From contig JBBQSO010000018.1 in the NCBI GenBank assembly GCA_038213805.1, positions 1 through 64,000 of the forward strand: a stretch of 64,000 bases of DNA, given 5' to 3'. Below the pieces are notes generated by a model that was not told the origin of the DNA, did not search any database, and worked only from the letters and a program-made list of their open reading frames with translations. Numbering within the stretch: position 1 is the stretch's first letter; every line of letters begins with the position of its first letter. Shown here piece by piece: positions 217 to 59,593 of the stretch. This DNA comes from Planctomycetota bacterium. Its GTDB lineage: Bacteria; Planctomycetota; UBA11346. The position numbers and the translations under genes were made by a program.

Positions 217-2334
217 CTAGCCCTCGCGACACCGCCGCCGCAGACCTGCCATCAGGGCGACCGCCACCAGGAAGACGAACATTGAGCCCAAACCGCATTT
301 CCCTGAGCTGCCACCACCGTTGCTCGACCCAGCGACCGGCGCAGCTGGGCCCGTGCCGACTCCGGAAGCCACGGTGACCGTCAGCGTCGCGGCGCTCGAC
401 ACGACATTGCCCGCGCTGTTGGTCACGGTGACGGTGTACGATCCTGCGTCCGCGCTCTGTGGGGTGGTGATGGTCAACGTCGCGCTGTCGGTGCCGACAT
501 TGGTCGACCCGCGCTTCCACTGGTAGCTGAGCGGGCCGGTACCGGTCGCCGCAACCGTGAGCGTCGCCGTCTGACCGGCAGACACCGTCTGGTTCCCTGG
601 CTGGGTGGTGATGGCTGGGGCCACGACCACGGCGTTCACCGTCAGCGTCGCCGCATGCGATATGACGTTGCCCGCACTGTTGCTGACCACGCAGCGGAAG
701 GTCGAACCATGGTCGCCGATCACCGTCGCTGGGGTGGTGTAGCTGGCGCTGGTCGCACCACTGATGGCGACGGTGTCCTTCTGCCATTGATACGTGGGCG
801 CAGGCATACCGGTCGCGCTCACGCTGAACAGGGCGGCGGCACCGGCTGCTACGCTCTGATTTTCGGGTTGCGCGGTGATGGTCGGCGTGCTCGCAGGCGT
901 CTCCCCATTGAGTCCGAACCATTCCGAGCCCGTATACACCGTACCTGTTCCCGAGGAACGCACCTGCACCGCATGATTCAGCGTGTTGTAGCCGGTGGTC
1001 GCCTCCCAGACGCCCGTGTTGGCAAGGTGGATGCTGTACTCTGGCCGGGCGTAGATCGAGGGGTAAGGATCGGGCAGATTGAGGATCACATCGTAGGTTC
1101 CGGCTGGCATGGACGACAAAATGCCACCGGTGATGGTCAAGGTCTTCGTTTCGTGCGACTTCGGCAGGTAGAGGCGATTGTAGCGGACGGCATCGTCACC
1201 AATGACATGCAGGATGTACTTGGCGCCATCCGACTGATTGCGCAGAATAATCTCGATCTTGCGCTCATTGAAGATGTTGCCGTATCCGTCGTTGATCATG
1301 GAAATGCTGAGCGACATGGTATCGCCAGGCCTGACCGCATCGGGGATCGCAGCAGAAATCAGTCGGTACCGGTAGCCGACGTTCGTGTCGATGATGCCAA
1401 GGGCTGCGCTGCTAAGTGTGCCATTGTCGAGAGACGCGAAGTCGAAGTGCTGCCTATCGAGATTATCAATGACCAGCTGGTCGCTGTAACCGCTGGCGCA
1501 ACTCATGTCCACGGCCAGATCGGGCGTGTATGACCCCTGCACCGCGGTGTAAGACCAAGGGCCCTCATCCGCATTGAATTCCGACGAGCCTTCGGCCAGA
1601 AAACAGTCGTTGTAGTGGCCAACTCTGGAGCGATCGGTACCGGTGAACGCCTCACTCTCGGGGCACGGCGCATCACCCAGCAACTGCCGGACTGCCGGCA
1701 TGTAACGCATCAACATCATACGGTTGCGCGGCACCGCATCGAGCATGGCGGCACAGATCCGCCGCGTGTTGTCGTTGACGTCCGAAGACCTGCCATTGAC
1801 GCTCGCGGTATTCTCGGTTCCCCACTGCTCGCCCCAGAAACCGTACATGCCCAGTCCCCCCAAGGCCATCACGTCCACATTCTTGACAAAGATCGGCTTG
1901 AGCTGGGCAAGGTGCCCGACCATGATCGCCGGAGTGGCGTCCCAGCCGGGGGGCGGTGGAAATACACCAAGCACATCGAATGAACTCAAACAGTAATTGA
2001 AGCGAGGAATGAGCTTGTAGCCGTTGGCGCGCGCCGTGGCGAAATCCGCATCAATCAGATCAATGACGTGCTGCGGAAGCTGGGCGGTGGTCTTCCATTG
2101 GCTCAGGCCGTAGGTGCACACCACGGTCGTCACCCCACGGCTCGTCCGCAAACCGCTCAGGAAGGCGGTCATGTCGGAAAGTGGCGACGGCAGTCCCTGT
2201 GAACCGAAATTATTGGAGTTGAATGCCCAATAGCCGCGCTCGGGATTGGCGATGATGCCATGGTCGGCGCTGTAGGTGATGGTGGCGGCATGCGCCGCGA
2301 AAGTCAGACAGCAGAGCACGAGGATGCGGATCAT
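217..2334 (-). CDS. Secreted DUF4874/DUF4832 putative glycoside hydrolase-like protein with two Ig-like domains and a C-terminal membrane anchor
   Basis: Signal peptide MIRILVLCCLTFAAHA after GGAGG; NPERG, GFWGEQW, RVGHYNDCFLA and VGYRYRL motifs; two P.ITxQP...YQW...N..G...S.AATLTV repeats; Gly/Ser-CGLG-TM-RRR tail. Confidence 0.8.
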   Translation of the reverse strand: MIRILVLCCLTFAAHAATITYSADHGIIANPERGYWAFNSNNFGSQGLPSPLSDMTAFLSGLRTSRGVTTVVCTYGLSQWKTTAQLPQHVIDLIDADFATARANGYKLIPRFNYCLSSFDVLGVFPPPPGWDATPAIMVGHLAQLKPIFVKNVDVMALGGLGMYGFWGEQWGTENTASVNGRSSDVNDNTRRICAAMLDAVPRNRMMLMRYMPAVRQLLGDAPCPESEAFTGTDRSRVGHYNDCFLAEGSSEFNADEGPWSYTAVQGSYTPDLAVDMSCASGYSDQLVIDNLDRQHFDFASLDNGTLSSAALGIIDTNVGYRYRLISAAIPDAVRPGDTMSLSISMINDGYGNIFNERKIEIILRNQSDGAKYILHVIGDDAVRYNRLYLPKSHETKTLTITGGILSSMPAGTYDVILNLPDPYPSIYARPEYSIHLANTGVWEATTGYNTLNHAVQVRSSGTGTVYTGSEWFGLNGETPASTPTITAQPENQSVAAGAAALFSVSATGMPAPTYQWQKDTVAISGATSASYTTPATVIGDHGSTFRCVVSNSAGNVISHAATLTVNAVVVAPAITTQPGNQTVSAGQTATLTVAATGTGPLSYQWKRGSTNVGTDSATLTITTPQSADAGSYTVTVTNSAGNVVSSAATLTVTVASGVGTGPAAPVAGSSNGGGSSGKCGLGSMFVFLVAVALMAGLRRRCREG

Positions 2335-2383
2335 AGGACCTCCGCCACTCATTGCGTCGCTGCGCCCACATCAGACAGCGAGC

Positions 2384-3529
2384 TCAGGGCGCGGGGCTGA
2401 GTTCCAGGGCCGACACCTCAAGCTGGACGCCGGGCTGCGGCGGCGTGCTGATCACCAGCACCAGCAGGCGGTCGAGGGGCAGGGGTAGGCGTTCGGCCTC
2501 ATTGCCTTGTTCGGTGACGGCGAAGGGGTCGACCACGCTTTCCTGCCACACTCCAGCCGGCCCAGGCGCGAGGGCGACGCCGCCGGACGAGGGCCGGGAG
2601 CTGCCAAACCAGCAAATGACCGGCGCCTGCTCGGCGCCCAGGATCCGCCAACGCAGGCGCAGGCGGCAGCCGGGGCTGAGCAGGGCGAGGCCGCCGTCCC
2701 GGACCAGGAAGATTCCGTGACTGGTCGGATGGTAGTCGTCACCAAGCAGAATATCCCCCTGTCGCCGACCGGCCTGCAGGCGCAGCGCGGTATTCGGCCA
2801 GCGGAAACCGCTCGGTGGCCCATCGGCAGCGGGTGTGCCGGCGCGCAGGTGGCTCAAGGCACCATCAACCACTTCGCACCAGGAGCCGGCGGAGCAGATC
2901 CGCTCACTGCCGCCGGCGGAGAAGGCGACGCGGCCCGCGCCCACCACCAAGCGGCTGCGCCCGGCTTGCTGCGCGAGCGCGAAGGCGGTGCCGAGCACCC
3001 GCACCCGCGCCACTCCCGCCTGCACGCAGAAGCTGCGCCCCGCCGTCTGATGAGCGATCTCGGCATCGACGCGGCCCTCGAGCAGTTCGACCCCGATGTC
3101 CGCGCCCCAGGGCCAGGCGGGGATTTCCCAGCGTACGCGCGTCCCCGCAGCCAGGTTGAGACGGCTGCCATCGCGCCAGCGCAGCTCGCCTCCCCTCTCC
3201 GCCGTCCAGTCACCGGCGGGCATCGCCTGGCCATCGCGCCAGGGCGTCAGCGCCGCGCGGGCCTCGTCGCGCCAGACCGTCACGCCCAGCGTGCTGGCCA
3301 GCAGCAGCCCCGCTGCCACCAGCCAGGGCCGCCAAGCCGCGCGCGCGCGGGCCGGCTGGCGGCGGCCGGGACGCGCCGCACGTTCGCGCAGGACTTCGCG
3401 CAACAGTCCATCGAGCCGCGCCTGGCGAGCGTGGTCACGGGCGAATGCGACATCGGCAGCCAGGCGGGAGTTCAGCTCCTCCGCGGCCTGGGCCTCGCCA
3501 TCGCGCCAGCGGTCGAGCAGCCCGCTCAT
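2384..3529 (-). CDS. FecR-family anti-sigma factor with C-terminal jelly-roll-like domain
   Basis: ATG overlaps the sigma stop (ATGA); N-terminal helical domain, TM helix WLVAAGLLLASTLGVTVW, FecR motifs DGSRLNL, LEGRVDAEI and VRVLGTAF. Confidence 0.85.
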   Translation of the reverse strand: MSGLLDRWRDGEAQAAEELNSRLAADVAFARDHARQARLDGLLREVLRERAARPGRRQPARARAAWRPWLVAAGLLLASTLGVTVWRDEARAALTPWRDGQAMPAGDWTAERGGELRWRDGSRLNLAAGTRVRWEIPAWPWGADIGVELLEGRVDAEIAHQTAGRSFCVQAGVARVRVLGTAFALAQQAGRSRLVVGAGRVAFSAGGSERICSAGSWCEVVDGALSHLRAGTPAADGPPSGFRWPNTALRLQAGRRQGDILLGDDYHPTSHGIFLVRDGGLALLSPGCRLRLRWRILGAEQAPVICWFGSSRPSSGGVALAPGPAGVWQESVVDPFAVTEQGNEAERLPLPLDRLLVLVISTPPQPGVQLEVSALELSPAP

Positions 3530-4047
3530 GCACCACCGGCCTGCGCCAGGCGCCGCCGCAGGCAGTCCCCCAGCCGTTCGCGCAGACGATGCAGGGCCCG
3601 CTGCACGGCGGTTGCACTGCCGCCCAGGCGCTTGGCCACCGCGGCGCAGTCGAGGCCCTCGGCATAGCGCAGCTCCAGCCAGCGGCGCTGCCGCCCGTCG
3701 ACCTCGTCCAGACAGCGGCGCAAGGCCTCCAACTCCTCCTCGTGCGAACCGTCGGGGTCCTCCCAGGCCGCCGTCAATGCCTCGATGGCCGCGGGCTCCA
3801 GGGCCTGGTGCTGCCGCGCCCGCCGCCACCAGGCCTTCAGCACCAGGCACGCGACCCCCCGCGCCCAGGCCCCGAAGGGTCGGCTGCGGTCGTAGTCGGC
3901 AAAGCGCCGCCACAGCACCAGGGTCACCTCCTGCACCACGTCATCACGCCCGGCCGGCTCGCGCACGCAGGCGGCGACAAAGGCCCGCAGATCGGGCTGC
4001 GCAGCGGTCAACAGGCGTAGGAAGTCCTCGTGGCCAGGCTCGTCCAT
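3526..4047 (-). CDS. ECF sigma-70 factor
   Basis: 173 aa; region 2 DDVVQEV..VLWRRFADYD.SRPFGAWARG; region 4 LELRYAEG...VAKRLG..V.RALHRLR. Confidence 0.93.
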   Translation of the reverse strand: MDEPGHEDFLRLLTAAQPDLRAFVAACVREPAGRDDVVQEVTLVLWRRFADYDRSRPFGAWARGVACLVLKAWWRRARQHQALEPAAIEALTAAWEDPDGSHEEELEALRRCLDEVDGRQRRWLELRYAEGLDCAAVAKRLGGSATAVQRALHRLRERLGDCLRRRLAQAGGA

Positions 4048-4410
4048 GTGCTCTTTGTCGACAGGGACCAGGGATCAGACAAGCGGATGTCTGTCGCTCA
4101 GGCCGCCTGGGCCCAGGTTGGCAAAAAACTGGAGGAAAGTCAGTGGCACCTGCCAGATACGTGGTGCGCGTCCGCAGCTGGCGCCCCGCGATCTTGCGGG
4201 CGCGGTTGCACCATCATCACCGGGGCAGGCTCAGCCACCCCGCAGAATGGGCCTGGTCGGGCAGCGGCGCGACCATCCTGAACAACGGCACGCTGCCGGA
4301 TGGTGCACTGACGCCCCAAGCAGACTTCCGGCGCGACGTCGTCCAGGGGTGTGATGCCATGGCGAGGAAAAGCGCTGCTGCGGTTCCGGTCCCGCAATGC
4401 CCCGGCGCCA

Positions 4411-5685
4411 TCAGGTCATCTCCAATCCACGCATCGTTTTCTGAGATGACGCAAATGCGGAGCATTCAACGCCCAGGCGCTGGAGCATGGAAACGAAGAG
4501 ATCGGGCAGCGGGTAGTTGTTGGTCTTGTCGAATGCCAGGTGCTGGCCGTGCTTGAAGCCACCACCAGCGAGGAGGACGGGCAGGTTGTGGGTATCGTGA
4601 TTGTTGCCATTACCGAGATTGCTGCCGTAGAGCACCTGGGTGCGATCCAGCAGGGTGGCTTCGCCCTCGGTGGTGGCGCTGAGTTTTTTCAGCAATCCAG
4701 CGAGCTGGCGGAACTGGGCGAGTTCGAGGTTCTTGAGCTGCTCGATCTTGTCTTCGCGTCCGACGTGGTGGGACAGGTTGTGGCTCTCACTGCCGACGCC
4801 GGGAATGTGCTCGCTGAAGCCGTCGAGACGGACCATCAGCGTGATCAGTCGCGTGCTGTCGGTGGCGACGGCCAGGTGCGCCAGGTCGTACATCGCGGCA
4901 AGCTTTTCGAGCAGGTACTCCGCGTCCTTGGGCACCGGTGCCGTGACCGTCGGCTTGGGCTTGCGCTCCCATTCCTCGGCGATGACCAGGCGGCGCTCCA
5001 CCTCGCGGACCGACGTGAAGTACTGGTCCACGCGCTGGCGGTCGGCAACGCCCAGCTGTTGCTGCAATGCGGCGGCGCGCTGCGCCACGGCATCCAGGAT
5101 GCTGCGGCCGGTACGCAGGTCTTCGACCTGGCGTTCGATCGCCGTGGTGTCACCGGCGACGAACAGCGCCTTGAATACCTGCGCGGCGCTGTTTTCGGCT
5201 GGCAGCATCACGCCGCTGGAGGTGAATGAGAGCGACTGGTTGCCGCTTTTCGCCACGACCAGCGACAGTGCCGGAACGCGCGTCAGGTGGCCGATGCGTT
5301 CAGCCGCGAACTGGTCGAGCGAGATGCTGTTGCGGAACGACGCCGAGCCAGGATGCGGCGCGGCAGTCAGGAAGGTGGCCTCCGCCGAATGGCCGCCCGT
5401 CACGTTCGGATGGGACGTTCCGGAAAAGACCGTGAACTGGTCGCGGAATTCCTTGAGCGTCTCCAGATACGGGGAGAGCGCATACCCGCGACCGGTTTCT
5501 GCCGGAAAGAAGTACCGCTCCAATACGCCGAGGTTGGTGCAGATGGCGATGATCCGTCGCGGGATCGTCGGCGCAGCAGCCCCAGCCGGCGGATTCATCG
5601 CATGCAGGAACGGCAGCGCGAGCGACACCCCGGCAGCACGCAGGAAGGTGCGACGCAACAACACGGATGCGGGACGGTTGATCAT
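4411..5685 (-). CDS. DUF1552 family Tat-exported protein
   Basis: RRTFLRAAGVSLALPFL Tat signal; GGH, NSISLDQ, SILD, HNLSHH, GSNLGNGNNH and NLPVLLAGG motifs. Confidence 0.92.
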   Translation of the reverse strand: MINRPASVLLRRTFLRAAGVSLALPFLHAMNPPAGAAAPTIPRRIIAICTNLGVLERYFFPAETGRGYALSPYLETLKEFRDQFTVFSGTSHPNVTGGHSAEATFLTAAPHPGSASFRNSISLDQFAAERIGHLTRVPALSLVVAKSGNQSLSFTSSGVMLPAENSAAQVFKALFVAGDTTAIERQVEDLRTGRSILDAVAQRAAALQQQLGVADRQRVDQYFTSVREVERRLVIAEEWERKPKPTVTAPVPKDAEYLLEKLAAMYDLAHLAVATDSTRLITLMVRLDGFSEHIPGVGSESHNLSHHVGREDKIEQLKNLELAQFRQLAGLLKKLSATTEGEATLLDRTQVLYGSNLGNGNNHDTHNLPVLLAGGGFKHGQHLAFDKTNNYPLPDLFVSMLQRLGVECSAFASSQKTMRGLEMT

Positions 5686-5697
5686 GGCGCTTCCGAT

Positions 5698-8600
5698 CTA
5701 TTTGCTTTGGAACAAGGGGCTGGCGACGACGCCCAGCAGCAGATCCCGAACCCCGTGGTGGGTCGGCCGGGTGCGGGCGATGATCGCTTCGATAGCGGCC
5801 CGATCAGAGAAGCGGATGCCGGTCCCGGTGGCGTAGATCAGCAGTTGGCGCACCAGGTTGCGCGCCAGGGCGTCTTCGTCCTGCAACAACAGGGCGCGCA
5901 GGCCCTGCACATCGGTGAAGGTGCGGCCGTCAGCCAATATGCCGCTGGCATCGACCTCCGATCCCAGGCGCATGCGGATGCGACTGAGGTAGTTCACGGC
6001 GGTGGAACTCACGACCATGATCGATGGTTCGTCGACCGACTCATTGCCCTTTTGGATCTTCCGCGGTGCGCCTTCCAAGCGGTAGCGGTCACGCCAGCCG
6101 CCGATGACATCAAAGCTTTCCAGCGCCAGTCCTGGAGGGTCCATCTTGGCGTGACAGGAGGCGCAGGCGCTGTCGGCGCGGTGCTTTTCGATCATCTGGC
6201 GGATGGTGACCGCGCCGGTCGCATCGGGCTCGACCGCCGGGATGTTTGGCGGCGGTGGCTGACGCGGAATGCCAAGCAGGCGCTCCATCACCCAGACGCC
6301 ACGCAGGACCGGCGAGGTGGCGGTGCCGTTGGCCGTCACCTTGAGCACCGCCGCCTGGGTCAGGAATCCACCGCGTGGCGAACCGGTCGGCAGCGGAATT
6401 TCGCGCAGTTCGGCGCCGCTGACGCCGTGGATGCCATATAATTCGGCCAAGCGCTGGTTGATCAGCAGCGTATCCGCCGCGACCAGACGGGTGACGCTGA
6501 GGTTCCGGTTCAGTAAGGTGCTGAAATAGCCACGCGATTCGGCAAGCATCGAGTCGCGCAACCACGGATCGAACTCGGGATACAGGTTGGGATCTGGCGT
6601 GGTGAAATCGATCTTCTTCAGTTCCAGCCATTCATCGAGGAAGTGCTCGATGAAGCGTTCGGCACGCGCATCGAGCAGCAACCGTTCCGTCTGTGCGCGC
6701 AGCGTCGCGGTCCGGGACAGGGCGCGCTCCTCCGCCAGCGCCAGCAACTCGGCATCCGGGGCTGAATTCCACAGAAAGAACGACAGCCGGGACGCCAGGG
6801 CGAGGTCGCCCAAGTGTGCGTCTCCGGCTTTGGGAATGCCCGCTTCGAGACCGATGAAGAGGAAGTCCGGCGCGCAGAGGATGGCTTTGTAGCCGGCGAT
6901 CATCGCTTCGTCGAAGGCTGCACCGCGGCCCAGCCGCAGGTCGACGATCTCCGCATACGGTGTAAGTTCAGCGCTGGTCACCGGCCGCCGGAATGCCCGT
7001 GTCGCAAATTGCAGCAGCAGCGTGCGGTAATCGGTCAGCTTTTCCGGCTGCGCCGCGACGGTCAGCGCCGGCGGTGCCTTCATGGTGATGTGGCTCAGGA
7101 ACAGATTGCGATCACGCAACTGCGGATCGGCATTCTTCCCATCGTAGAAGTCATTGACGAACTGCACGCCCACCGTCACCGGACCGACGCTCGCCACGCT
7201 GAAGCGTGCGCTGAATTTCTGCGGGGACGCACGTAAAGCAGTGACCGCGAAGCGCGCATGCGGCATTTCATGGCCCTCCACCATCAGGTACATCTGTGCC
7301 GGCTCGTCGCCCGCATGGGTCTCAAACGCGGTCACTTCCAGCTCATGGTCTCCCGGCACCGTGCAATTGACGACCATCGACACGGTTCCGTTGCTATTGA
7401 GGAGGCGATCCTCCCCGGACATCTGGCCGGTGCCCGCGAACGCGGTGAGCGGAAGCGTCACCGTCGTCCCGGCTTCGACCAGCGGTGCCCCAGCCACCGG
7501 AGGTCGCGGATAGGCGTTGGCGGCGCTCTCCCCGAACAGTCGCCGCTGGCTTTCGGGCGGCCACTGCGCGATCAGCGGGCCTTCGACTTCGAACCAGTCG
7601 AACGCCACGCCCGGCCCATCGTAATCGAGCACGCCCTGGCTGAATCCGCCTCCCGGCGCGCCATTGCCCGGCAGGGTCATCACATGGAACGAGATGCGTT
7701 CACCGGGATTCAGCCAGGCCTTGAACTCATGTGTCGTCGGCTGCAGCGATGGCGCGTTGAAATAGCCGAGCGGCACGCCATTCAGCGACGCGCGCACGAT
7801 ATGGGTGGACTCGCCAGGCCCGTAGAACTCGACGTTCTCCTGCCATTCGCCGACGACTCCGCCCTTGGCCGCGAGCTTTTCGGCCGACAGCGGCGTGGCT
7901 TGCCAGCGTCCGTCCGCATCCTTGATGAACGGCAGGCCGAACGGCTCATAGTACCGCACCATCCCACGCACCGCGGCCACTGCATGCGTGCGCTCCCAGC
8001 GCAGGCCCCAGGTGGAAAAACGCACGCGGTACCAGCCGGGCACGGTCGGATGGAAGCGATCGATCTGGAGCCCTTCCGGCTGGTGGGCGCCGATGACGCC
8101 TGACAACTGCACCAGAGACTCTGCTTCGCCGTCAAACCACGGCGCCCGGTAGGAATTCCCGTAATCCTCCACCGGATTCCCGGCGATCTGGCTCTTGAGT
8201 CCAGGCGCAACGTCACGGCCATTGATCGGAACAGCGCATTTCTGTGCCACCGATGCGCGCGCCGTGTCCTGGCGCATGGCTGGTTCGCGCCAGACCGTGG
8301 ACTCTGGCTTGTTCGCGCCAGGGACCATTGCCTGGCGCAGGGCGACGTCGGCGGCCTGCAGGTATTTGGTCATCTGGATGTACGAGATGTCGAGCGCCCC
8401 CGCCACCTTGTCGAAACCGAACTGCTGCCCGTCTTCTGGCAGGAGCTCCCTGACCCGCAACAACGGCAACGCCAACAGATCGCGTAACGCGCATTCATAC
8501 TCCACGCGATTCATGCGGCGCACGGTCGTCCGTCCACCGGCGGCCTTGATCACGTTGCCATCGGCGGCGGTCAACTCCTTGCCGAGCGCCGCGAGGAAGG

Positions 8601-8883
8601 CGCCGCGTTCCGCCTCCGCTGGACGGGCCTTTTTTTTCGGGGGCATCTCTCCTGATGCGACGCGATCGTAGACCTGCAGCCAGCGCGCTACGTTGTCGGG
8701 CTTGGCAAAATCCTCGGTCAGAACCCCCAGATCGAGATTTCCCTTTTTCGTCTCAGCGTCATGACATTCCGTGCAGTGCTGCTTGAACAGCGTCCGCGTC
8801 GCCGCCGGGACATCGCCCGCCCGCACCATCGGCGTGATCACGCAGAGCATCAATACCGACAGCAGCATTTTCGTGCCACGCAT
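5698..8883 (-). CDS. DUF1587/1595/1592/1588/1585 planctomycete cytochrome c protein with an inserted CBM60-like module
   Basis: Signal peptide; CTECH and CASCH heme motifs; RRMNRVEYE, LASRLSFFLWNSAPD, RGGFLTQ and SPVLRGVWV; start set at the ATG 7 nt after GAGGA. Confidence 0.92.
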   Translation of the reverse strand: MRGTKMLLSVLMLCVITPMVRAGDVPAATRTLFKQHCTECHDAETKKGNLDLGVLTEDFAKPDNVARWLQVYDRVASGEMPPKKKARPAEAERGAFLAALGKELTAADGNVIKAAGGRTTVRRMNRVEYECALRDLLALPLLRVRELLPEDGQQFGFDKVAGALDISYIQMTKYLQAADVALRQAMVPGANKPESTVWREPAMRQDTARASVAQKCAVPINGRDVAPGLKSQIAGNPVEDYGNSYRAPWFDGEAESLVQLSGVIGAHQPEGLQIDRFHPTVPGWYRVRFSTWGLRWERTHAVAAVRGMVRYYEPFGLPFIKDADGRWQATPLSAEKLAAKGGVVGEWQENVEFYGPGESTHIVRASLNGVPLGYFNAPSLQPTTHEFKAWLNPGERISFHVMTLPGNGAPGGGFSQGVLDYDGPGVAFDWFEVEGPLIAQWPPESQRRLFGESAANAYPRPPVAGAPLVEAGTTVTLPLTAFAGTGQMSGEDRLLNSNGTVSMVVNCTVPGDHELEVTAFETHAGDEPAQMYLMVEGHEMPHARFAVTALRASPQKFSARFSVASVGPVTVGVQFVNDFYDGKNADPQLRDRNLFLSHITMKAPPALTVAAQPEKLTDYRTLLLQFATRAFRRPVTSAELTPYAEIVDLRLGRGAAFDEAMIAGYKAILCAPDFLFIGLEAGIPKAGDAHLGDLALASRLSFFLWNSAPDAELLALAEERALSRTATLRAQTERLLLDARAERFIEHFLDEWLELKKIDFTTPDPNLYPEFDPWLRDSMLAESRGYFSTLLNRNLSVTRLVAADTLLINQRLAELYGIHGVSGAELREIPLPTGSPRGGFLTQAAVLKVTANGTATSPVLRGVWVMERLLGIPRQPPPPNIPAVEPDATGAVTIRQMIEKHRADSACASCHAKMDPPGLALESFDVIGGWRDRYRLEGAPRKIQKGNESVDEPSIMVVSSTAVNYLSRIRMRLGSEVDASGILADGRTFTDVQGLRALLLQDEDALARNLVRQLLIYATGTGIRFSDRAAIEAIIARTRPTHHGVRDLLLGVVASPLFQSK

Positions 8884-9215
8884 GGTCATTCCTCGGTGCT
8901 TTGCCGTAGTCCCGTCTGGCTTCCGGGACATTACAGGAACTTGCGCGGCAATGCGCACTGCGTGCACCTGCACCGAGATGCAGGTGCGTCGCCGCTGGCA
9001 GGGCTTCAGCCATTTGGCAGCCAACGGGCGCCTGGGCTGACGGAACCAGCGACGCAGAGCGTGGATAAGTAGACGCAAGTCAGCGGATGCCGTGAGCGGC
9101 ACTCCCAACCCGGCTGTATCCTGCATCTCCACGCCTCGCGTTCCGCCCTCCGTGTGTCTGTGTCCACACGGGATGTCCGCCTGCTCCTCAGCGGGCGGGC
9201 GATGAGCCGGTCGCT

Positions 9216-10799
9216 CTACGGGGTGGGTGGCTGGATCAGCGCGTGCAGCGCATCGACCTTCGTGACGTTCAGGGGATCGAAAACCAGCACATCGCCATTG
9301 GCCTTGGCCGCGGCCAGCACCGCGGGCGTCGGGTTGGCGCCGAACCACGGCAAGCGGACCACTGTGCGGCCGGGTGGTACCGCTTCATCACCCAGGGCGT
9401 GGCCTGCGGCGACCGCGGTATGGGCGATGGTGGCATTTTCGACGATCAACAGCACGTCCGGATGGCGCAACGCGACGGCGCGCAGCGCGGCGGCGGGAAC
9501 GCGGGCGGGCGAGGGGATCCCGGGTCCGGCGGTGTTGATGAAGAACACCGTGCAATCCCAGCGCTTGCGCGCATAGACGATGCGGCTGTCGATTTCAGCC
9601 TCGGCGCTCGCATTGTCGGCATGCTCGACGTCCTTGTGCCACGCGGCCCCCCGCTGTTCGAGTCGCCACGGTGAGATGGTGACGCCGACACGGAACCCGG
9701 CTGCGCGGATGCGTGCGAACAGCGCATCCGCAATGGCGTCGAACTCCGGTGCGAATTCAGCCACGCGGCGTGGATCACCAAGAAATCCGATGGTGTGTTG
9801 ATGGACTCCGCCTTCGATGCCGTAGAGCATGACGCCCTGGGCATCCGCCCGGCGCAGTCCGGCGATCGCCTGGTCGATCGCATCCGTCATGCGTGCGGAA
9901 AATGCAGCCGGCTGCAGATCGAGCACCGGATCGAACAGCCAGCCGCTGGGGTTGTTCGCTGGCTGGTGTCCAGGCGGTCCCATCAGACCACTGAGCACCA
10001 CGCAGCCGAGCGGACGGTGGTCGTTCCATGGCGGCGGCCCAAGCACGACCGTGCCGTCGGCGGCGATCATCCGCTGACCCGCGGTGGCGAACTGCGCATG
10101 GTCACCGCTGCGCAGCGCGACGCGGCCTTCACTGACGGTCACCACGCTGCAGTCATCCTCGACATCGACACGGAATCGCGTGCCCAGCACCGTGGCTTCG
10201 CCATGGGGTGTGGCGATGGCGAAACTGGTACCACCGGTCTGTGGCGCCACCTGCGCCTCGACGCTGCCCGCGGTCAGATCAAGACGCTTGCGTCGGGCAT
10301 CGCCACCCAGGCGCACGTGGCTGCGCGGTGCGACGATGACCAGGCTGTGATCAGCGAAACGCACATCGCGTACCGCAGGGGGGATGTCGGCGCCAACCGC
10401 CAGGGCGACGCCATCGCCCCGCGCCACCGTGCTGCCGATCGACCACCACCAAGCGACCAGCACGCAGGCCGCGGCCGCACTGGCACATGCCGACCACCAG
10501 CGCCGTGGCGAGCGGCGCCGCGCCCCGGCCATGACCTGCGCCACGGTCTGGGTGCGACTGGATTGGCGGTCCGCGATGATCAGGGCGCAGGTCCGTACGG
10601 CAGCGTCCCGCGCGGCAGCGGCACGCACATTCTCCGCAGTAGAGATGGCGCTCAGGTGATGGACGAAGCGGCGTTCGGCGGCGAGCGCCGCCTGCAAATC
10701 CTGGTCACGGGCGACGCGGGCGGTCCACGTGGCCAAGGCTTCGCCGACCAGGGTGCCGTCACACCAACGTTCCAGGTTTTCCAGGTCATCGGGCGTCAT
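9216..10799 (-). CDS. FecR-family anti-sigma factor fused to a C-terminal alpha/beta (TIM-barrel-like) domain
   Basis: ATGA overlap with the sigma gene; TM helix; FecR motifs TPHGEATVLGTRF and VSEGRV; extra alternating alpha/beta domain of about 270 aa. Confidence 0.85.
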   Translation of the reverse strand: MTPDDLENLERWCDGTLVGEALATWTARVARDQDLQAALAAERRFVHHLSAISTAENVRAAAARDAAVRTCALIIADRQSSRTQTVAQVMAGARRRSPRRWWSACASAAAACVLVAWWWSIGSTVARGDGVALAVGADIPPAVRDVRFADHSLVIVAPRSHVRLGGDARRKRLDLTAGSVEAQVAPQTGGTSFAIATPHGEATVLGTRFRVDVEDDCSVVTVSEGRVALRSGDHAQFATAGQRMIAADGTVVLGPPPWNDHRPLGCVVLSGLMGPPGHQPANNPSGWLFDPVLDLQPAAFSARMTDAIDQAIAGLRRADAQGVMLYGIEGGVHQHTIGFLGDPRRVAEFAPEFDAIADALFARIRAAGFRVGVTISPWRLEQRGAAWHKDVEHADNASAEAEIDSRIVYARKRWDCTVFFINTAGPGIPSPARVPAAALRAVALRHPDVLLIVENATIAHTAVAAGHALGDEAVPPGRTVVRLPWFGANPTPAVLAAAKANGDVLVFDPLNVTKVDALHALIQPPTP

Positions 10800-11353
10800 G
10801 CGGTCGGCCCCTGGGTGTCGACGCAGGCCCGCAGGGTCTTGCGCAGGCGATGGAACTGCACGGCCAAGGTTCCTGCCGTCTTGCCCAGGCGCGCCGCGAG
10901 CGCGTCCAGGTCGAGGTCATCGCGGTAGCGCAGATCGATCAACGTGCGCAGCGCCTCGCTCAGCCTTCCGATACATACGCGTAGCCGTTCCAGACGTGGG
11001 TCTTCGCCCTGGTCGAGCTGGGCATCGAGCGCAGCCGCATCGTGACGCGCCAGCAGCGTACCCAGATCGCGTCCAGCCGAGCGGGAGCGGTTGCTCAGCT
11101 CCTTGCGCAGGTGATTGAGTGCGATGCCCTTGACCCACGACACGAACGTACCGCGGGATTCGTACTTGGGCAGCACCCGCCAGCAGGTGATCAGCGCCGA
11201 CTGCACGACCTCTTCGACCAGATCGTCGGTGGCGCAGCGCACGGCGACAAATACCCGCACGTCATAGTGGATGATCTCCACCAGACGCTGGAAGGCGCCA
11301 TGATCGCCCTGCTGGGCCAGGGGCACCAGGCGGTTGATCTCATCCTCATCCAT
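10796..11353 (-). CDS. ECF sigma-70 factor
   Basis: AQQGD..AF, VEEVVQ, F.SWVKGIA.N, LIDLRY and LAARLGK..R.RK.LR.C motifs. Confidence 0.93.
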   Translation of the reverse strand: MDEDEINRLVPLAQQGDHGAFQRLVEIIHYDVRVFVAVRCATDDLVEEVVQSALITCWRVLPKYESRGTFVSWVKGIALNHLRKELSNRSRSAGRDLGTLLARHDAAALDAQLDQGEDPRLERLRVCIGRLSEALRTLIDLRYRDDLDLDALAARLGKTAGTLAVQFHRLRKTLRACVDTQGPTA

Positions 11354-11465
11354 GTCACCACGTAGTCCCTGTGCGTTGACCAGGGATTACAGGCGATTTT
11401 CCGAGGGTCTAGCGAGGGCAGAAATGGCGCATCCGGATCGCTCTGTCACGAGCACCACACTGCTC

Positions 11466-20542: not shown

Positions 20543-20932
20543 GCGAAGTGGCTCCGCGAGTTTCCAACGCAGGCGCGAGCACACGCCCGTCGCCGCTCAC
20601 ACGATGGTACGGGTATTCCAGATCGACGCTGAGGGCATGCGCGTCACCGGCAGTTGCACTCCCGTCGCCAAGCGACGCTGTCCGCGACGTCTGGTGCGCT
20701 GCGACAGTTCCACCCGCAGTGCCCGTCTGGATGCGGATCCTCGCGATGGCGACGCCGATCCATTGGACGATCCGCTCCAGACGTTGGACTCTCATCGCAC
20801 TGGTTTACCGACGTCGAACGGGCACCGCGAATTGTGGTAATGGCCGTGATGATATCGGGAATAGCACCGCGACCGCGCAGCCGGAACCGACTACCCCGAC
20901 GCTCCCTCTCCACGTCGCAAAGGCCATCACCC

Positions 20933-38161: not shown

Positions 38162-38546
38162 GGCGTGGTCTTCCAGCGCGCTTGGGACGGCGCAGCGCAG
38201 CACCCTACCCTGGCGTTGCCATCGCTGCGGGGAACGGCTTTGTTGTCATCGCGATGGGAAAGGCGTCGCCACCAGGAACCGTGATCCGATACGATGCGAT
38301 ATCCGGCCATGAGAACTGGATGTTTCTGATGCGATAGTGCCGATCTTTCACAGGAAGACCTGCGCTGCGATCCGCAATGGTCGCCCGCAAGAGTACCGTG
38401 AACGTCACGAAAATCCTAAGCACATCGGCGTCGAACGCACTATCCATGACACCATCACGGACATTGAGTGGCGACCTATCCGCATGCCGTGTGGCGACGG
38501 CGTAGCGGTCGACGCCGGATTCCGCCGCCCACGACCGAGAGCCCTC

Positions 38547-50759: not shown

Positions 50760-50953
50760 CACGGGACGCTCCAACGGCTCGCGCTTTCATTCTTGCTAGG
50801 GCCGCTTGAGAGCATCACCAGGATGACCTCGGTTTCGGCGTACAGACCACGGTTATTCGCGCCCGGCAATGGCTCACCCAGCGTCCCGTGACGTTTCCGC
50901 TTTCACCCGACTTCCCCACCGCGGACCGAACTTCGGTCTGCCCCAAGCCGTAA

Positions 50954-51813
50954 GAAGCTGTCTGGAAACGCTCATGGCTGACGCCGGATGAACACTCGGA
51001 TTATAGCGAGTCGGATGAAAGCCTCTGTATGCTTCGAGCAGCACTCATATTCGCTGCGCCAGTCGCCGACATGCAACCATCCATGCGGTGGTGTGCTCAA
51101 TCACCCATCGTCTTGATAGGACGGCGAATCCGCGCTGTCCTGGTTCTTTGTCGACAATGCACATGGTGAGGCGGCGACGTTGGCGCAGGTTGTGTACGCT
51201 ACGCACTGCAGGAGCTTGCCGCGATACCCGCCGTCGGCCCAGATGAGCCTGACTCGGGTCATGGTGGTGGCGAGGCCCTTGAGTATCAGCTGCGCTCCGT
51301 CGCGATCCTGGAAGTCGGCGGCGTGCACCACCACATCGACCAGATTTTCCTGTGAATCCACGAGCAAATGACCATTTCCTCCCATGATCTTCCTCCCGGC
51401 ATCATATCCGAAATCCCGCGTGGCTGAGCTCGATCCTTTGACACTTTGGCTGTCGATGATCAGCGCCGACGGATCGGCCTGACGTTTGATGCGGCGGCGC
51501 TCACCCCGACGAAGTCGGCGCAGAGCCTTCTCCGTGATGCCGGCGGCGACACAGCCTGACCAATGCCGATAGACAGTCTTCCATGGAGAGAACTCGGGCG
51601 CAAATTGCGCCACTGACAACCGCTTTCGAGCAGATTGAAGACCGACTCGAACAACCGCTTTGTCGTGTGCTGACGCGGACGACCAGTTCGGTCAAGTGAA
51701 GGGAAAAGGCGGTAAATCAGGCCCCAGGAGCTGTCGGAAAGGTCATTGTGCGAATTCTCTCAGGCGACTGAGAGATCAACGCACCCAGGCGTTCGAGGCT
51801 TCCAGGCAGCTTC
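50954..51813 (-). mobile_element. Decayed IS5-family (IS1031-like) insertion sequence, 860 bp
   Basis: Terminal IRs GAAGCTGTCTGGAA (50954-67) and TTCCAGGCAGCTTC (51800-13), 13/14 match; flanks TAA and TCA. Confidence 0.8.
51000..51760 (-). pseudogene. Frameshifted IS5-family transposase
   Basis: Fragments in different frames: DLSDSSWGLI, GCQWRNL, PWKTVY, IIDSQSVK..GYDAG, QDRDGA, WADGGY and RWVIE. Confidence 0.88.
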
Positions 51814-52056
51814 TCAACGATTCGTTGTTTGACCTTACGGTCGTCTGTACAATCCTTGGAGTCCGGATGCGTGGCCAGCTGTTTCCCACGTAACTTTTAA
51901 CATTCAGTACTTTCTGACTGTTCATACCGGCGCACTGTCTGTGCAATCTCGTGTGCACTTTGGACGGTCTTGGAGCTTGCGACGGACGGCGATTGCGTCC
52001 GGACCGCGAGCGAGATGATACCGCCCACCAAAAGAAGGTCAGGCAAGGAACTGAAA

Positions 52057-52137
52057 TGCTCCAGCTTGGCTGCGATGCGAACGATCACGGCGGAGATCAC
52101 CTCGCACGTGATCCCGGTCATGTTGGCGTAGGGGAAC
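52057..52137 (+). ncRNA. Degenerate TPP (thi-box) riboswitch; 5' boundary approximate
   Basis: GGCGGAGA..CACC..ACGTGATCCCGGTCATGTTGGCGTAGGGGA versus consensus GGCTGAGA..ACCC..ACCTGATCnGGnnATnCCnGCGTAGGGA; lies upstream of a thiC relic. Confidence 0.65.
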
Positions 52138-52220
52138 AAAATGACCGCACCCGTTCCATGGTAACACACGTCACCGCGCCGCCCTTTATCTTCTTTACTC
52201 CCGCCCTTACGAGTTCCCTC

Positions 52221-52451
52221 ATGCGCTCCGCCTACCTCCGAGACCGCCACACTCGCCCCAAGGTTACCCAACTGCACTACGCGCGCCGCTGCGTCATCAT
52301 TGATGAGATCTGCCGGGTCGCCGATCACGAATTCCTGTCCCCGGAACTGGTGGTAAGCGTGGCGGAAACAGGGCGCACGACCATTTCCGCCGAGGCGGTC
52401 CGCGAGGGACAGGCGGAACACAAGGCACGCCTCGCCGGAATGACGGGCTAA
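52221..52451 (+). pseudogene. thiC: Truncated thiC (HMP-P synthase) remnant, 76 aa
   Basis: MRS......KVTQLHYARR.VI.DE...VA..E.L.PE.V...A..GR..I.A resembles the short-form ThiC N-terminus (VTQMHYAR.G.ITEEM..VA.RE.L.PE.IR.EVARGR.IIPAN); catalytic body absent. Confidence 0.78.
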
Positions 52452-52456
52452 CCCGC

Positions 52457-52795
52457 GTGCTGCGCAAGGCCTTTGTGATGGCAGTTCACCCCGGCTGCGA
52501 AGCCGTGTACGAGAGCCGACACCGCCCGATTTGGCCAGAATTGGAGGCAGTGTTGCGCGCGCATGGCGTACGCGGCTATTCGATCTTTCTGCACGCCCCT
52601 ACACGCCAGCTCTTTGCTTACGCCGAGATCGAGAGCGAGGAGCGCTGGCAAGCGATTGCCTCTACCCTGGTGTGCCAGCGCTGGTGGACGACAATGGCCG
52701 AGCTCATGCCGACCAACCTGGACGGCAGCCCGCAGGCAGTGGACCTGCGCGAGGTGTTCCACATGAGTGAGACGCAGGGCGAGAACATGAGGTAG
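52457..52795 (+). CDS. rhaM: L-rhamnose mutarotase
   Basis: RKAFVM......YE.RH.PIWPEL, YSIFL, LFAY.EIESEERW..IA...VCQRWW..M...M..N.D.SP...DLREVFH. Confidence 0.93.
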   Translation: MLRKAFVMAVHPGCEAVYESRHRPIWPELEAVLRAHGVRGYSIFLHAPTRQLFAYAEIESEERWQAIASTLVCQRWWTTMAELMPTNLDGSPQAVDLREVFHMSETQGENMR

Positions 52796-52820
52796 ACCCA
52801 TGCGGGCCCAGTACGAAAAC

Positions 52821-54248
52821 CGTACTGCGCAGATATCCATCGCGATCATTTTCTTCGGATTCCCCCGCAGATTATTCCTCGACGGCGTATCCCCGATTCA
52901 ATAATCCGTCACTGTGACGCCGCCTGCCCATCAAAAATCACCTCGCGGCCTGCCGCCCGACATCGCGTCGGCGGATCGAGTAACGATCAATCCGATAGAT
53001 TCAGGCGGCGACGCGGTGGTAGTGCCGCACGACCCCGCCGCAGCGGGTCACGCAGCGGATCTGGCTGGTCGTAAATCCCGCGATGGGTTTCTGCGCAGGT
53101 GCAGGAGCAGCCTGAGAATCGCCGTTCAGCGGTCGGTTGCCCATTCCCTGATGCGGCCGCTCCCGGCTGTAATGCTCGTCGACGAACTCGTTCAGCACCC
53201 GGCAGAGTCCGGCAGAGCCCAGGAACCAGACGCGGCGCGTGCACTCCCGCTTGACGGTGCGCACCCATCGTTCGGCGATGGCATTGCAGTTGGGACTTCT
53301 CGGCGGGATGGGAACTGTCTCGATGCCGGCAGCATTGAGCACCTCCTTCCAGCGTCCGCAGAATTTGGTGTCCCGGTCGTGGATCAGGTAGCGGCAGCCC
53401 GCCTGCTTCAGCCAGCCCGTGCCTTCCATGGTCTCATTCCGGGCGATCTGGGTCATGTACTCAGCGTTGGCGTGCTCGGTGACGCCCAGGATCTTCACCT
53501 GTCTGGTCTTGTGGTGGATGGCGAACAGCACGTCGTAGGTCGTCTTGCCCAGCCAACCCATCACATCGACGGTGAAGAAGTCGGTGGCCACCAAGGCGTC
53601 GGCCTTCTCGGTCACAAACCGTTTCCAGGACCAATCGGTGCTACGCTCGGGTGCTGGCGTGAGTCCATGTCGATCCAGAATGGCGGCGATGGTGCGCGGC
53701 GAGAGGGGAATCAGCAGCAGCACCAGCATGCCGGCGATGCGCAGCTGTCCCCAGGTTGGGTTCTCTTTGGCCAGGCGCAGGACGACCTGCTCGATCTCGG
53801 TATCCACACGCGGCCGACCGGGACCGGCTCGCTTCGTGCCGAGCTTCCCCGTCAGCATCAGACGATGCCAGCCACGGATGGTGGCCGCCTTGGCAATGGT
53901 GGCGATCTCATCCAGGCGCTTCCAGCCAACACCGCTGGCGGTTCTGGCCAGGCGTTTGCGCCATCGGTCAGTGAAGCGCAAGGGCTGTCCCATGGGGATT
54001 TGCTCACGGAGGTAGGCGATTTCGGTGCGCAGGTACGCGACCTCGGCGATGAGCGTTTTGTTCTTTTTGGCCAGGATGGTGGCGGCGATGAGCCGGGCGA
54101 GAAAGGGAAGGCTATCCATAGGGCGATGGAGCCTGGAGAACCGGTCGGGTGGCTCAAGCGTTGGGGGCGGGCGGCGTGATGAGGCAGAGGGGGATTCGGG
54201 ATGGCTCGGGCGGCGGGATCCGGCCTGGGTGAATTTCTGAGCACTACG
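52821..54248 (-). mobile_element. IS481-like insertion sequence with CGTA termini
   Basis: Imperfect IRs CGTACTGCGCAGATATCC (52821-38) and GAATTTCTGAGCACTACG (54231-48), 14/18 match, around an rve gene; no target duplication. Confidence 0.65.
53001..54119 (-). CDS. Integrase-core (rve) DDE transposase
   Basis: GRP, LAKENPTWG..RI.G, ATDFFTVD, YLIHDRDTKF, SPNCNAIAERWVRTVKREC and ERPHQG. Confidence 0.93.
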   Translation of the reverse strand: MDSLPFLARLIAATILAKKNKTLIAEVAYLRTEIAYLREQIPMGQPLRFTDRWRKRLARTASGVGWKRLDEIATIAKAATIRGWHRLMLTGKLGTKRAGPGRPRVDTEIEQVVLRLAKENPTWGQLRIAGMLVLLLIPLSPRTIAAILDRHGLTPAPERSTDWSWKRFVTEKADALVATDFFTVDVMGWLGKTTYDVLFAIHHKTRQVKILGVTEHANAEYMTQIARNETMEGTGWLKQAGCRYLIHDRDTKFCGRWKEVLNAAGIETVPIPPRSPNCNAIAERWVRTVKRECTRRVWFLGSAGLCRVLNEFVDEHYSRERPHQGMGNRPLNGDSQAAPAPAQKPIAGFTTSQIRCVTRCGGVVRHYHRVAA

Positions 54249-54338
54249 TGGTCGTGGTCAGGTCGCCGGTCAGGTCAATTTGAAGTACGGACAGGAGCCG
54301 GGAGTGCAATTCTACACCCACATTTCTGACCAGTACGA

Positions 54339-54758
54339 CTGCGGGATATGGGCCGCATAGAACGGACGCTATTTGCCCTGGACTGGATGCAGCATGTCGA
54401 ACTACGACGCCGTGTGCAGGCCGGCTTGAACAAGGGTGAGGCCAAAAATGCCCTGGCCCGTGCTGTGATTCTGAACCGGCTGGGCGAGATCCGTGACCGC
54501 GGATTCGAGAACCAGCGATACCGTGCCAGCGGCCTCAACCTGGTGGTGTCCGCCATCGTGTTGTGGAACACAGTCTACCTGGAACGGGCGATCCAGGCGC
54601 TTCGGGCGGCGGGCCGTGACATCGATGAGAAACTCCTCCCGCACCTGTCGCCGCTGAGCTGGGAGCACATCAACCTGACCGGCGACTACGTCTGGCGGCA
54701 GCGTAAGCCGCTTGAGAAAAATGGGTTCCGAAAGCTACGGGAACCTGGAAATGCTTAG
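54339..54758 (+). pseudogene. tnpA: C-terminal fragment of a Tn3-family transposase
   Basis: [11 protein letters not shown]...[34 protein letters not shown] and [15 protein letters not shown]. Confidence 0.93.
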
Positions 54759-54791
54759 CGTACGATATTGTCCGTTTCGTGAGCAGACCCC
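54754..54791 (-). repeat. Tn3-family 38-bp terminal inverted repeat
   Basis: Minus strand reads GGGGTCTGCTCACGAAACGGACAATATCGTACGCTAAG (GGGG...ACGCTAAG) and overlaps the tnpA stop. Confidence 0.92.
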
Positions 54792-57920: not shown

Positions 57921-57927
57921 GCACGTA

Positions 57928-59202: not shown

Positions 59203-59593
59203 GTATGTTTTCCAGTAAATCCGTCGCCAGGCGTTGACGTTATTCCCAGAAACGATAGCATATCCTGCAACAGGCAGTGCCCAAGCAGACTCAATGGGTA
59301 CCAATGCCCATGCCATAGCACGCCGCTACCGGGTTCGTTCAGTGAGTAATAGGCTGTGCACATCGTGCGCCTGCATCGAATGGTGATGCTGTTCCAGCTC
59401 ACCCGCATGGCCGAGATGGCTATTGGAAGCTGGTTCGAGCTAGCCTCTGCATTCGCTAGCGACCGAGGGCCTAACTCGTTCCTCGATGATCGGCCTGCTC
59501 TCCACCAGTAGGAGACGCACACCGTCACCCTCCTCCACGTCGTTTCACAAAGAATCCTCCGGTAAAGATGTTTCCTGGTGTACGTATTCCCTC

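Follow-up and report, generated by a model that had tools for sequence, protein, structure and literature searches.

Sigma/FecR/cargo modules and DUF1592/DUF1552 gene pairs in a glycan-use region of a Planctomycetota genome

The stretch of 64,000 nt considered here (the window) forms the first 64 kb of C18, a 73.5-kb contig (JBBQSO010000018.1) in the draft genome of a Planctomycetota bacterium (G000, assembly GCA_038213805.1; 5.5 Mb in 180 contigs, 69 % G+C). It harbours two copies of a gene pair for a DUF1592-type di-haem protein and a DUF1552/HXXSHH protein, together with three gene pairs for an extracytoplasmic function (ECF) sigma factor and a FecR-type anti-sigma factor. With a probability of roughly 0.6, the window contains three independent sigma/FecR/cargo modules, in which the FecR protein is the sensor and the DUF1592/DUF1552 pair is a cargo. 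Each module would consist of an ECF sigma factor, a translationally coupled, single-pass FecR anti-sigma factor, and the adjacent gene or genes for exported glycan-processing proteins. The preliminary description of the region had taken the haem-c/Tat-exported pair to be a glycan-sensing module in the place held elsewhere by SusC/D; a duplicated upstream motif, and the presence of sigma/FecR genes upstream of the pair at four of five linked loci, suggest instead that the pair is a regulated target. Domain content was assigned to the window proteins using Pfam, and the best sigma subfamily match using NCBIfam. Genome completeness is 90 %, which sets the scope for all genome-wide counts and absences given below.

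A motif shared by the sigma A1 and DUF1592A genes

The genes at issue lie on the minus strand, where those for sigma A1 (10796–11353; Sigma70_r2 and Sigma70_r4_2) and FecR A1 (9216–10799; Pfam FecR) overlap by ATGA and are followed by the genes for DUF1592A (5698–8883) and DUF1552A (4411–5685; Pfam, 258 bits). A predicted ECF-type promoter of sigma A1, made up of CCTGTAAT, 16 nt and GGGACTACG, is situated at 11361..11393, and a second copy of the same motif is found on the same strand at 8905..8937, within the 333-bp gap past FecR A1 and 22–54 nt 5′ of the DUF1592A start codon (ATG at 8883). The full motif, CCTGTAAT-16 nt-GGGACTACG, has two sites in the whole 5.5-Mb genome, and the core GTAAT-N16-GGGACTAC is present at exactly two (11390 and 8934), against 0.04 expected from base composition.

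Both positions of the motif are retained within the genus, as it is kept before the orthologous sigma genes of G005, G007 and G010, and before DUF1592 genes in the same three genomes (two such genes in G005). Alignment of nine upstream regions from four genus genomes, five preceding DUF1592 and four preceding sigma genes, reveals that GTAAT and GGGACTACG are invariant and that the spacing is constant, whilst the sequence of the 16-nt spacer varies. In G007, where the sigma gene and DUF1592 are divergently oriented, each of the two is faced by one motif. This pattern of bases and spacing is that expected for an autoregulated ECF sigma factor with one extra target, and GTAAT-N16-GGGACTACG presumably acts as a promoter. 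Sigma A1 would thus transcribe both itself and DUF1592A–DUF1552A from two copies of one promoter, GTAAT-N16-GGGACTACG. As the motif is duplicated before DUF1592A and kept at nine sites, DUF1592A–DUF1552A constitutes the predicted regulon of sigma A1/FecR A1.

When loosened (GTAA[T/C], gap, AC.A), the motif yields one loose match upstream of the other 22 FecR-linked sigma genes and is otherwise absent there. A pairwise search of upstream regions, which recovered the sigma A1 motif as a control, returned nothing common to the sigma A2 gene and the junction with the enzyme gene that follows its FecR, nothing common to either sigma B or sigma A2 and the region upstream of DUF1592B, and nothing convincing for the linked loci on C42, C36 and C54. 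A genome-wide two-part word search for promoters gave approximately 1400 mostly chance matches for one probe.

Outer domains of the FecR proteins and the proteins of the pair

FecR A1 comprises a cytoplasmic N-terminus, one hydrophobic span, a FecR beta-domain and a C-terminal, glycosidase-like TIM barrel. Of 19 homologues found, 17 were aligned (40–77 % identity), and the resulting AlphaFold2 (AF2) model has a predicted local distance difference test score (pLDDT) of 77.9. In this model residues 134–254 superpose with the first periplasmic subdomain of PupR (Z 16.0, root mean square deviation (rmsd) 2.4, 120 residues), and residues ~257–527 form a beta/alpha barrel that matches the catalytic domains of glycoside hydrolase (GH) families GH13, GH36, GH31 and GH29 (Z 13–14, 220–248 residues). 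ESM Atlas leads for the same C-terminus likewise point to glycosidase families, all with scores below 0.9, and the FecR protein encoded on C36, which also precedes a DUF pair, has the same C-terminus. For the C-terminal part of FecR B, weak ESM Atlas leads (scores 0.82–0.86) are to CBM_4_9-like clusters and DUF642.

With regard to the classical signalling route, none of the 24 FecR proteins of the genome is matched by FecR_C (PF16344), the transducer-docking subdomain. Eight of the 24 bear a recognisable domain at the outer end (Laminin_G_3 in four, PA14 in three and NPCBM in one), and two more display weak GH5-like or beta-helix similarity. No TonB-dependent receptor is encoded in the window, and the only two of the genome, on C73 and C3, are not near any FecR gene; the single STN/FecR_C-like match of the genome, on C130, resides in a separate protein and not in either receptor. 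SusD_RagB has no match genome-wide. In this respect the preliminary description, which had remarked on the lack of TonB-dependent receptors and SusD in the window and on a glycan-gene region working without SusC/D, is borne out, with 24 FecR genes in the genome against two TonB-dependent receptors, neither of them beside a FecR. The observations support the view that the FecR proteins here cannot use a classical TonB-dependent transducer, and the likely sensor of the signal is FecR itself. Binding of a glycan at its outer end, i.e. the TIM barrel in FecR A1 and Laminin_G_3 (LamG), PA14 or NPCBM in paralogues, would then release the sigma factor. With the pair under predicted sigma/FecR control and sensing probably located on FecR, the DUF1592/DUF1552 pair would take the position of cargo.

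Both members of the pair bear the hallmarks of exported proteins. DUF1592A contains PSCyt1, PSD3, CBM60, PSD5, PSD4, PSCyt3 and PSD2 domains, and both it and DUF1592B possess two CxxCH motifs and a signal-peptide-like N-terminus. DUF1552A and DUF1552B each begin with an RR-x-F-L motif of twin-arginine translocation (Tat) type, which reads RRTFL in the former and RRAFL in the latter. An AF2 model of DUF1552A built from 40 sequences (pLDDT 81) displays the core alpha/beta fold of the alkaline-phosphatase superfamily in comparisons with VIA-align, where its partners are nucleotide pyrophosphatases (NPP), alkaline phosphatase, type I sulfatases and phosphoethanolamine transferases (Z 12.5–14.6, 222–267 residues, rmsd 3.3–4.8). 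All of the Foldseek matches listed, 30 of the top 50, belong to this same superfamily and are weak. Across the 40 sequences the invariant residues comprise six His, two Asp and one Asn, among them His99, Asp124, Asp276, His302, His306, His363, Asn367 and His379, and these suggest a metal site; the position that follows strand 1 (TNLG) varies. The last 100 residues of DUF1552 have a weak profile link to DUF1501 (probability 30 %, E 5.5e-4). Sequence searches of the PDB with DUF1552A, DUF1592A, FecR A1 and a DUF1552 profile returned nothing meaningful, and a complex prediction for DUF1552A with the C-terminal half of DUF1592A scored 0.14 (mark 0.32), which is evidence neither way. An association of DUF pairs with classical sulfatases, reported for other genomes, was rejected for G000, as the genome has one weak Sulfatase match against 28 DUF1552 genes; in this it differs from marine relatives, in which such pairs are surrounded by sulfatase genes.

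The pair is most likely a periplasmic two-protein enzyme, presumably with glycans or their decorations as substrate, in which DUF1552 would be the Tat-exported, His/Asp-rich member from the alkaline-phosphatase superfamily and DUF1592 its di-haem partner, equipped with CBM60 in copy A. The haem c motifs, Tat export and the origin of the FecR name in iron signalling are also what might be seen if the pair and its sigma/FecR genes formed an envelope redox or metal-homeostasis system that merely lies inside a glycan island, and Kamneva et al. 2012 (PMC3542564), who describe the DUF1501/PSCyt module, propose electron transport. Such a role is unlikely given the CBM60 of DUF1592A, the glycosidase-like barrel on FecR A1, the LamG, PA14 and NPCBM domains on paralogous FecR proteins, and a sister-module cargo consisting mostly of glycoside hydrolases and esterases. 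Additionally, He et al. 2017 (PMC5615132) note that PSCyt3 genes adjoin an uncharacterised family, that PSCyt proteins carry carbohydrate-binding modules (CBMs), and that they may act on carbohydrates.

Sigma/FecR units within the genome, the genus and beyond

The genome contains 28 full DUF1552 genes and one fragment, 27 DUF1592 genes and 24 FecR genes. A DUF1592 gene adjoins DUF1552 in 27 of 28 cases, and a sigma gene is located directly 5′ of FecR in 23 of 24. A FecR domain lies no more than 6 kb from DUF1552 in 5 of 28 instances, where 1.47 would be expected (5000 random placements, P = 0.012); 23 of the 28 DUF pairs are therefore without a FecR within this distance, and 19 of the 24 sigma/FecR pairs have no DUF1592/DUF1552 pair nearby. 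At four of the five linked pairs (C18a, which is window A1, and C42, C36 and C54) the sigma/FecR genes are upstream, with the gene order being DUF1552 then DUF1592 on C36 and C54. Of the 28 pairs, only the two in the window have the downstream order. Maximum-likelihood analysis of the 28 DUF1552 paralogues places all five linked genes in one clade of six (support 88/69; inner five 100/97), and a check of the surroundings of the sixth member, on C17, disclosed no hidden sigma/FecR genes. The neighbours of the C17 pair encode ThuA-like and GDSL-DUF7133-cytochrome c proteins. Relative to the earlier accounts of PSCyt/DUF1552 pairs cited here, the promoter link and its restriction to one DUF1552 clade are new.

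A survey of the gene that follows FecR in the 24 units finds a PSCyt-type pair in five, of which four are DUF1592/DUF1552 and the other is DUF1553 with PA14; a protein bearing glycoside hydrolase, esterase, CBM, lectin, beta-helix or DUF4874/4832 domains in 11; a DUF7133-HEAT-cytochrome c protein in one; and unrecognised or unrelated genes in seven. Amongst the 11 are GH29, a GH39-like protein with malectin, GH53, a GH36-like protein, two GDSL loci, a CBM6/35 protein, and a sugar dehydrogenase with cytochrome c and ricin lectins. The cargo is hence recognisable as a glycan enzyme or a haem protein in 17 of the 24 units. This survey indicates that the recurring unit is ECF sigma, FecR and a secreted cargo, of which the DUF1592/DUF1552 pair is one kind.

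Within the window, the order DUF1592, DUF1552, spacer, sigma, FecR, enzyme does occur twice, with copy A preceded by an extra sigma/FecR pair, just as the preliminary description had it. In copy A (minus strand) a 363-bp spacer (4048–4410), which shares no motif with the other spacers in pairwise comparison, separates DUF1552A from sigma A2 (3526–4047). The 381 amino acid FecR A2 (2384–3529; Pfam FecR) is encoded within a listed open reading frame (ORF) extending to 3913, and its likely start is set by an ATGA overlap with the sigma A2 stop. The cargo gene (217–2352) begins 31 bp past FecR A2 and specifies a DUF4874/DUF4832 protein with two immunoglobulin-like (Ig) domains, to which its PDB sequence matches are confined. 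The C-terminus of this protein comprises a Gly/Ser-rich stretch, a hydrophobic helix and RRR, and in its sequence resembles a C-terminal sorting anchor. The Ig-domain DNA (217–830) is 70–82 % identical to cargo genes of other sigma/FecR modules (C87, C99) and of genus-mates.

Copy B, on the plus strand, encodes DUF1592B (55419–57920), DUF1552B (57928–59202; 204 bits), sigma B (59486–60148, likely start 59594), FecR B (60145–61611; Pfam FecR), a GDSL/SGNH hydrolase (61608–63068) and a GxGYxYP-family protein (62975–64000, continuing to contig position 66001), with a GTGA overlap between sigma B and FecR B, and an ATGA overlap between FecR B and the hydrolase gene. Its spacer measures 283 bp to the ORF start of sigma B or 391 bp to the ATG at 59594, so that the range of ~360–390 bp previously given for the two spacers fits copy A and the longer figure for copy B. 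That the copies are built from divergent paralogues also stands, and they are not a block duplication: DUF1552A and DUF1552B are not sisters in the tree, and FecR A2 and FecR B have no mutual match at E < 1e-3. All three sigma factors have a Pfam match and their best subfamily match to TIGR02989, a Rhodopirellula/Verrucomicrobium sigma subfamily with a cut-off of 124.55 bits; sigma A2 (137.6 bits) and sigma B (155.7 bits) score above it and sigma A1 (107.9 bits) below. Module A2 (sigma A2, FecR A2 and the DUF4874/DUF4832-Ig protein) and module B (sigma B, FecR B, the GDSL hydrolase and the GxGYxYP protein) would each be a separate operon that lies downstream of a DUF pair by chance.

DNA comparison with 10 genus-mates, including G001, G005, G007 and G010, bears on this point. 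The block of DUF1552A, DUF1592A and FecR A1 is 83–86 % identical in G010 and G005, and the DNA below 4408 (sigma A2, FecR A2 and enzyme) has no counterpart in either; across the genus the latter has short matches only, to the repeat at 1–139, to the Ig-domain stretch and to 95 bp of the spacer. Following the orthologous DUF pair, each of G000, G010 and G005 has its own sigma-FecR-enzyme unit, and the enzymes are unrelated: a DUF4874/4832-Ig protein in G000, an fn3-PA14-DUF1349 protein in G010, and in G005 a FecR-Laminin_G_3 protein followed by a GH27 alpha-galactosidase. The downstream unit is seemingly a separate, swappable module, as judged from these alignments, and the earlier view of the cassette as one system is not upheld, because its downstream part is exchanged between genus genomes. 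For copy B, none of the 10 genus-mates has a DNA match to the sigma B-FecR B-GDSL part, and the DNA relative of this copy in the genus is limited to DUF1552B and the last ~370 bp of DUF1592B (83 %, G001), with no sigma gene seen in the 1.7 kb downstream of the G001 DUF1552 gene.

The presence of a sigma-FecR-enzyme unit directly after the orthologous pair in all three genomes might reflect a relay, in which a polymer sensed by module A1 would lead to induction of the DUF pair, whose product would in turn be the inducer that the next FecR senses in switching on the next enzyme, with adjacency mirroring the steps of a pathway. Such a chain is quite unlikely, since the downstream enzymes of the three genomes (DUF4874/4832, PA14-DUF1349 and GH27) are unrelated and the G001 relative of DUF1552B lacks a sigma match in the flank just mentioned.

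Beyond the genus, one genome per species was sampled, and the 80 loci with the closest relatives of DUF1552A (46–81 % identity; Verrucomicrobiota and Planctomycetota, ~0.75 Mb of flank) were scanned with profiles from the FecR, sigma, DUF1592 and DUF1552 proteins of this genome. There were three FecR matches against 3.3 expected and seven sigma matches against 7.0 expected, in a scan that applied home-made profiles to loci of which many are short, against a background density taken from G000. About six of the 80 loci have a sigma or FecR match within ~6 kb. The clearest, in Stieleria sedimenti ICT_E10.1 (L050), has sigma-FecR at the head of a series comprising fragments of DUF1553 and DUF1501, followed by DUF1592, DUF1552 and part of a sulfatase gene. 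Two short ORFs between FecR and DUF1592 at this locus (3652–5328) match just the C-terminal parts of DUF1553 (PSD1) and DUF1501, and a 207 amino acid sulfatase fragment follows DUF1552; these may be decayed genes or the result of mis-called starts. The closest relatives, at ~80 % identity (L024, L027, L028 and L045), have tandem DUF pairs and no sigma/FecR match in the available flank. At L027, L028, L045 and L102 the DUF1592/DUF1552 pairs are arrayed in tandem, two or three together, and no regulator was detected between one pair and the next. The occurrence of sigma/FecR genes beside DUF pairs outside the genus is thus recurrent, but not general, and the enrichment that the preliminary description had anticipated is found within G000 and not in the 80 loci. 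DUF1552 itself is present in all 10 genus-mates, with 2 to 38 matches each, and among the genomes searched in none of two other genera of the family and in three of eight other families of the phylum, such that its expansion is patchy and lineage-specific.

These comparisons also bear on whether the DUF1592/DUF1552 pair could itself be a glycan-responsive periplasmic module that signals to the downstream FecR, replacing SusC/D or a TonB-dependent transducer. The order of DUF pair then sigma-FecR, seen twice in the window and again in G010 and G005, would accord with this, as would FecR proteins that have no transducer partner and the CBM60 of DUF1592A. The proposal is nevertheless very unlikely. 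The pair is under the predicted promoter of the upstream sigma factor; the greater part of the pairs (23 of 28) have no FecR nearby, the loci of other genomes are at background, and the closest relatives lack a sigma/FecR match in their available flank; the downstream FecR varies between genomes whilst the pair is constant; and FecR proteins have binding modules of their own, with most sigma/FecR pairs (19 of 24) being remote from any DUF pair.

Several findings weigh against the interpretation of FecR as sensor and the pair as cargo of independent modules. The upstream-region searches did not yield a promoter for sigma A2, sigma B or DUF1592B, so that sigma A2 may be transcribed by read-through from the DUF pair. 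A terminator and sigma-70 scan of 2300–11600 found three terminator-like sites, against 3.9 expected, and none inside any spacer, including that before sigma A2. The recurrence of downstream sigma/FecR genes after the orthologous pair in three genus genomes could signify a functional link that goes beyond neighbourhood. In addition, 14 of the 24 FecR proteins, including the three of the window, have no Pfam match in the outer part, a transducer could lie in the missing part of a genome that is 90 % complete, and the structural matches of DUF1552 are remote (best Foldseek E 3.8e-3, with no PDB sequence match).

Relation to known systems and the rest of the window

The arrangement of FecR as sensor and an exported protein as cargo shares features with several described systems. 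In common with FecI/FecR/FecA (Fec of Escherichia coli; PupI/PupR/PupB of Pseudomonas), the ECF sigma factor is translationally coupled to a single-pass, FecR-domain anti-sigma factor, the promoter pattern fits autoregulation, and the beta-domain of FecR A1 superposes on PupR. It differs in lacking both an adjacent TonB-dependent transducer and an STN signalling domain. A glycosidase-like TIM barrel, LamG, PA14 or NPCBM stands in place of the FecR_C/STN-like subdomain, and the targets are glycan enzymes and haem/DUF1552 pairs rather than an iron transporter.

The closest working analogue is sigma-I/RsgI, and the likeness is one of working principle, i.e. a binding module on the anti-sigma factor, and not of membership. 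Some RsgI proteins carry glycoside-hydrolase-like sensors. The system described here is unlike sigma-I/RsgI in having an ECF sigma factor of TIGR02989 type and a FecR-domain anti-sigma factor in a diderm cell with a periplasm. As outlined in two accounts of cellulolytic clostridia (PMC6852018, PMC4711584), the outer end of the anti-sigma factor is there a CBM (PA14 included) that senses polysaccharide, and, as here, a genome encodes many paralogous sigma/anti-sigma pairs, each controlling glycan-degrading genes.

With regard to the polysaccharide utilisation loci of Bacteroidota (ECF10/ECF240), Casas-Pastor et al. 2021 (PMC7826278) connect the FecI-like groups ECF239–243 with anti-sigma factors of FecR-like type, and within these connect ECF240 with the scavenging of carbohydrates in Bacteroidetes. 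A multiplicity of such sigma and anti-sigma factors in one genome, tied to carbohydrate scavenging, is a shared theme, whereas in the present case there is no SusC or SusD and the sensor domain is on the anti-sigma factor itself. Pairs of PSCyt/PSD proteins with DUF1552 or DUF1501 are described for Planctomycetota and Verrucomicrobiota in PMC5615132 and PMC3542564, and by Studholme et al. 2004 as cited there, and the pairs in G000 agree with them in domain architecture, in pairing (27 of 28), in Tat and signal peptides, and in CBM insertions. Sigma/FecR control is a difference from those earlier accounts, at least as far as their main text goes, in which the word 'sigma' is absent from both PMC5615132 and PMC3542564. 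A literature search, with subscription journals outside its coverage, brought up no publication on FecR proteins that end in glycan-binding domains in bacteria of the Planctomycetes–Verrucomicrobia–Chlamydiae (PVC) group, and no paper joining anti-sigma, FecR, Verrucomicrobia and polysaccharide.

A broader proposal, which is plausible at somewhat less than even odds, is that Planctomycetota, and probably Verrucomicrobiota, possess a large family of transducer-independent FecR proteins in which the dock is replaced by a LamG, PA14, NPCBM or TIM-barrel sensor of glycan-binding or glycosidase-like type, each with its own ECF sigma factor, promoter specificity and adjacent exported enzyme, and that the haem-c/DUF1552 pairs are glycan-induced periplasmic enzymes in this network. 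If so, the network would correspond, within the PVC group, to sigma-I/RsgI of clostridia and to SusC-linked signalling in Bacteroidota, and the inducer and sigma factor would offer a direct handle on the function of the haem-c/DUF1552 pairs. PSCyt/PSD and DUF1552/DUF1501 proteins belong to those unexplained families that are most expanded in Planctomycetota and Verrucomicrobiota, with 28 DUF1552 genes in this genome. The data suggest a route of polysaccharide sensing without SusC/D, and with almost no TonB-dependent receptors, in which the sensor is on the anti-sigma factor.

Elsewhere the window is given over to glycan use and encodes, by Pfam, GH29, GH95, a SASA esterase, PcRGLX-like and PL4-like lyases and esterases, as well as a sodium:solute symporter and LacI- and AraC-type regulators. 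These enzymes point towards oligosaccharides of pectic and fucosylated type. A DUF1553-type protein (38337–41489, plus strand; PSCyt1, PSCyt2 and PSD1) and its DUF1501 partner (41486–42976, plus strand) are encoded amongst the GH29, GH95, SASA esterase, PcRGLX-like and PL4-like genes, which agrees with the position among fucosidase and lyase genes earlier ascribed to this pair (given there as 38547–42976). From ~50 kb onwards G+C falls from ~0.70 to 0.58–0.65 (50000–64000, and on to contig position 73485), and within this stretch copy B is directly 3′ of transposase remnants (51101..54758), consisting of DDE_Tnp_1 (51101–51619), rve (53001–54119) and a Tn3 fragment (54348–54758). Copy B and the esterase and glycosidase genes that follow may be an acquired block.

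The window stretch is present in two DNA metagenome runs, both from one study, and in no listed RNA run. Its first 139 nt (1–139) are a dispersed repeat, with copies on C90 (88 %), C121 (92 %) and C77 (73 %) and in G010 (85 %), and this repeat probably caused the contig break. A 1434 amino acid DUF7133-HEAT-cytochrome c protein is encoded at 20654–24958, and its paralogue on C58 comes directly after a sigma/FecR-PA14 pair; DUF7133-cytochrome c proteins are thus a second haem-protein family tied to sigma/FecR switches.

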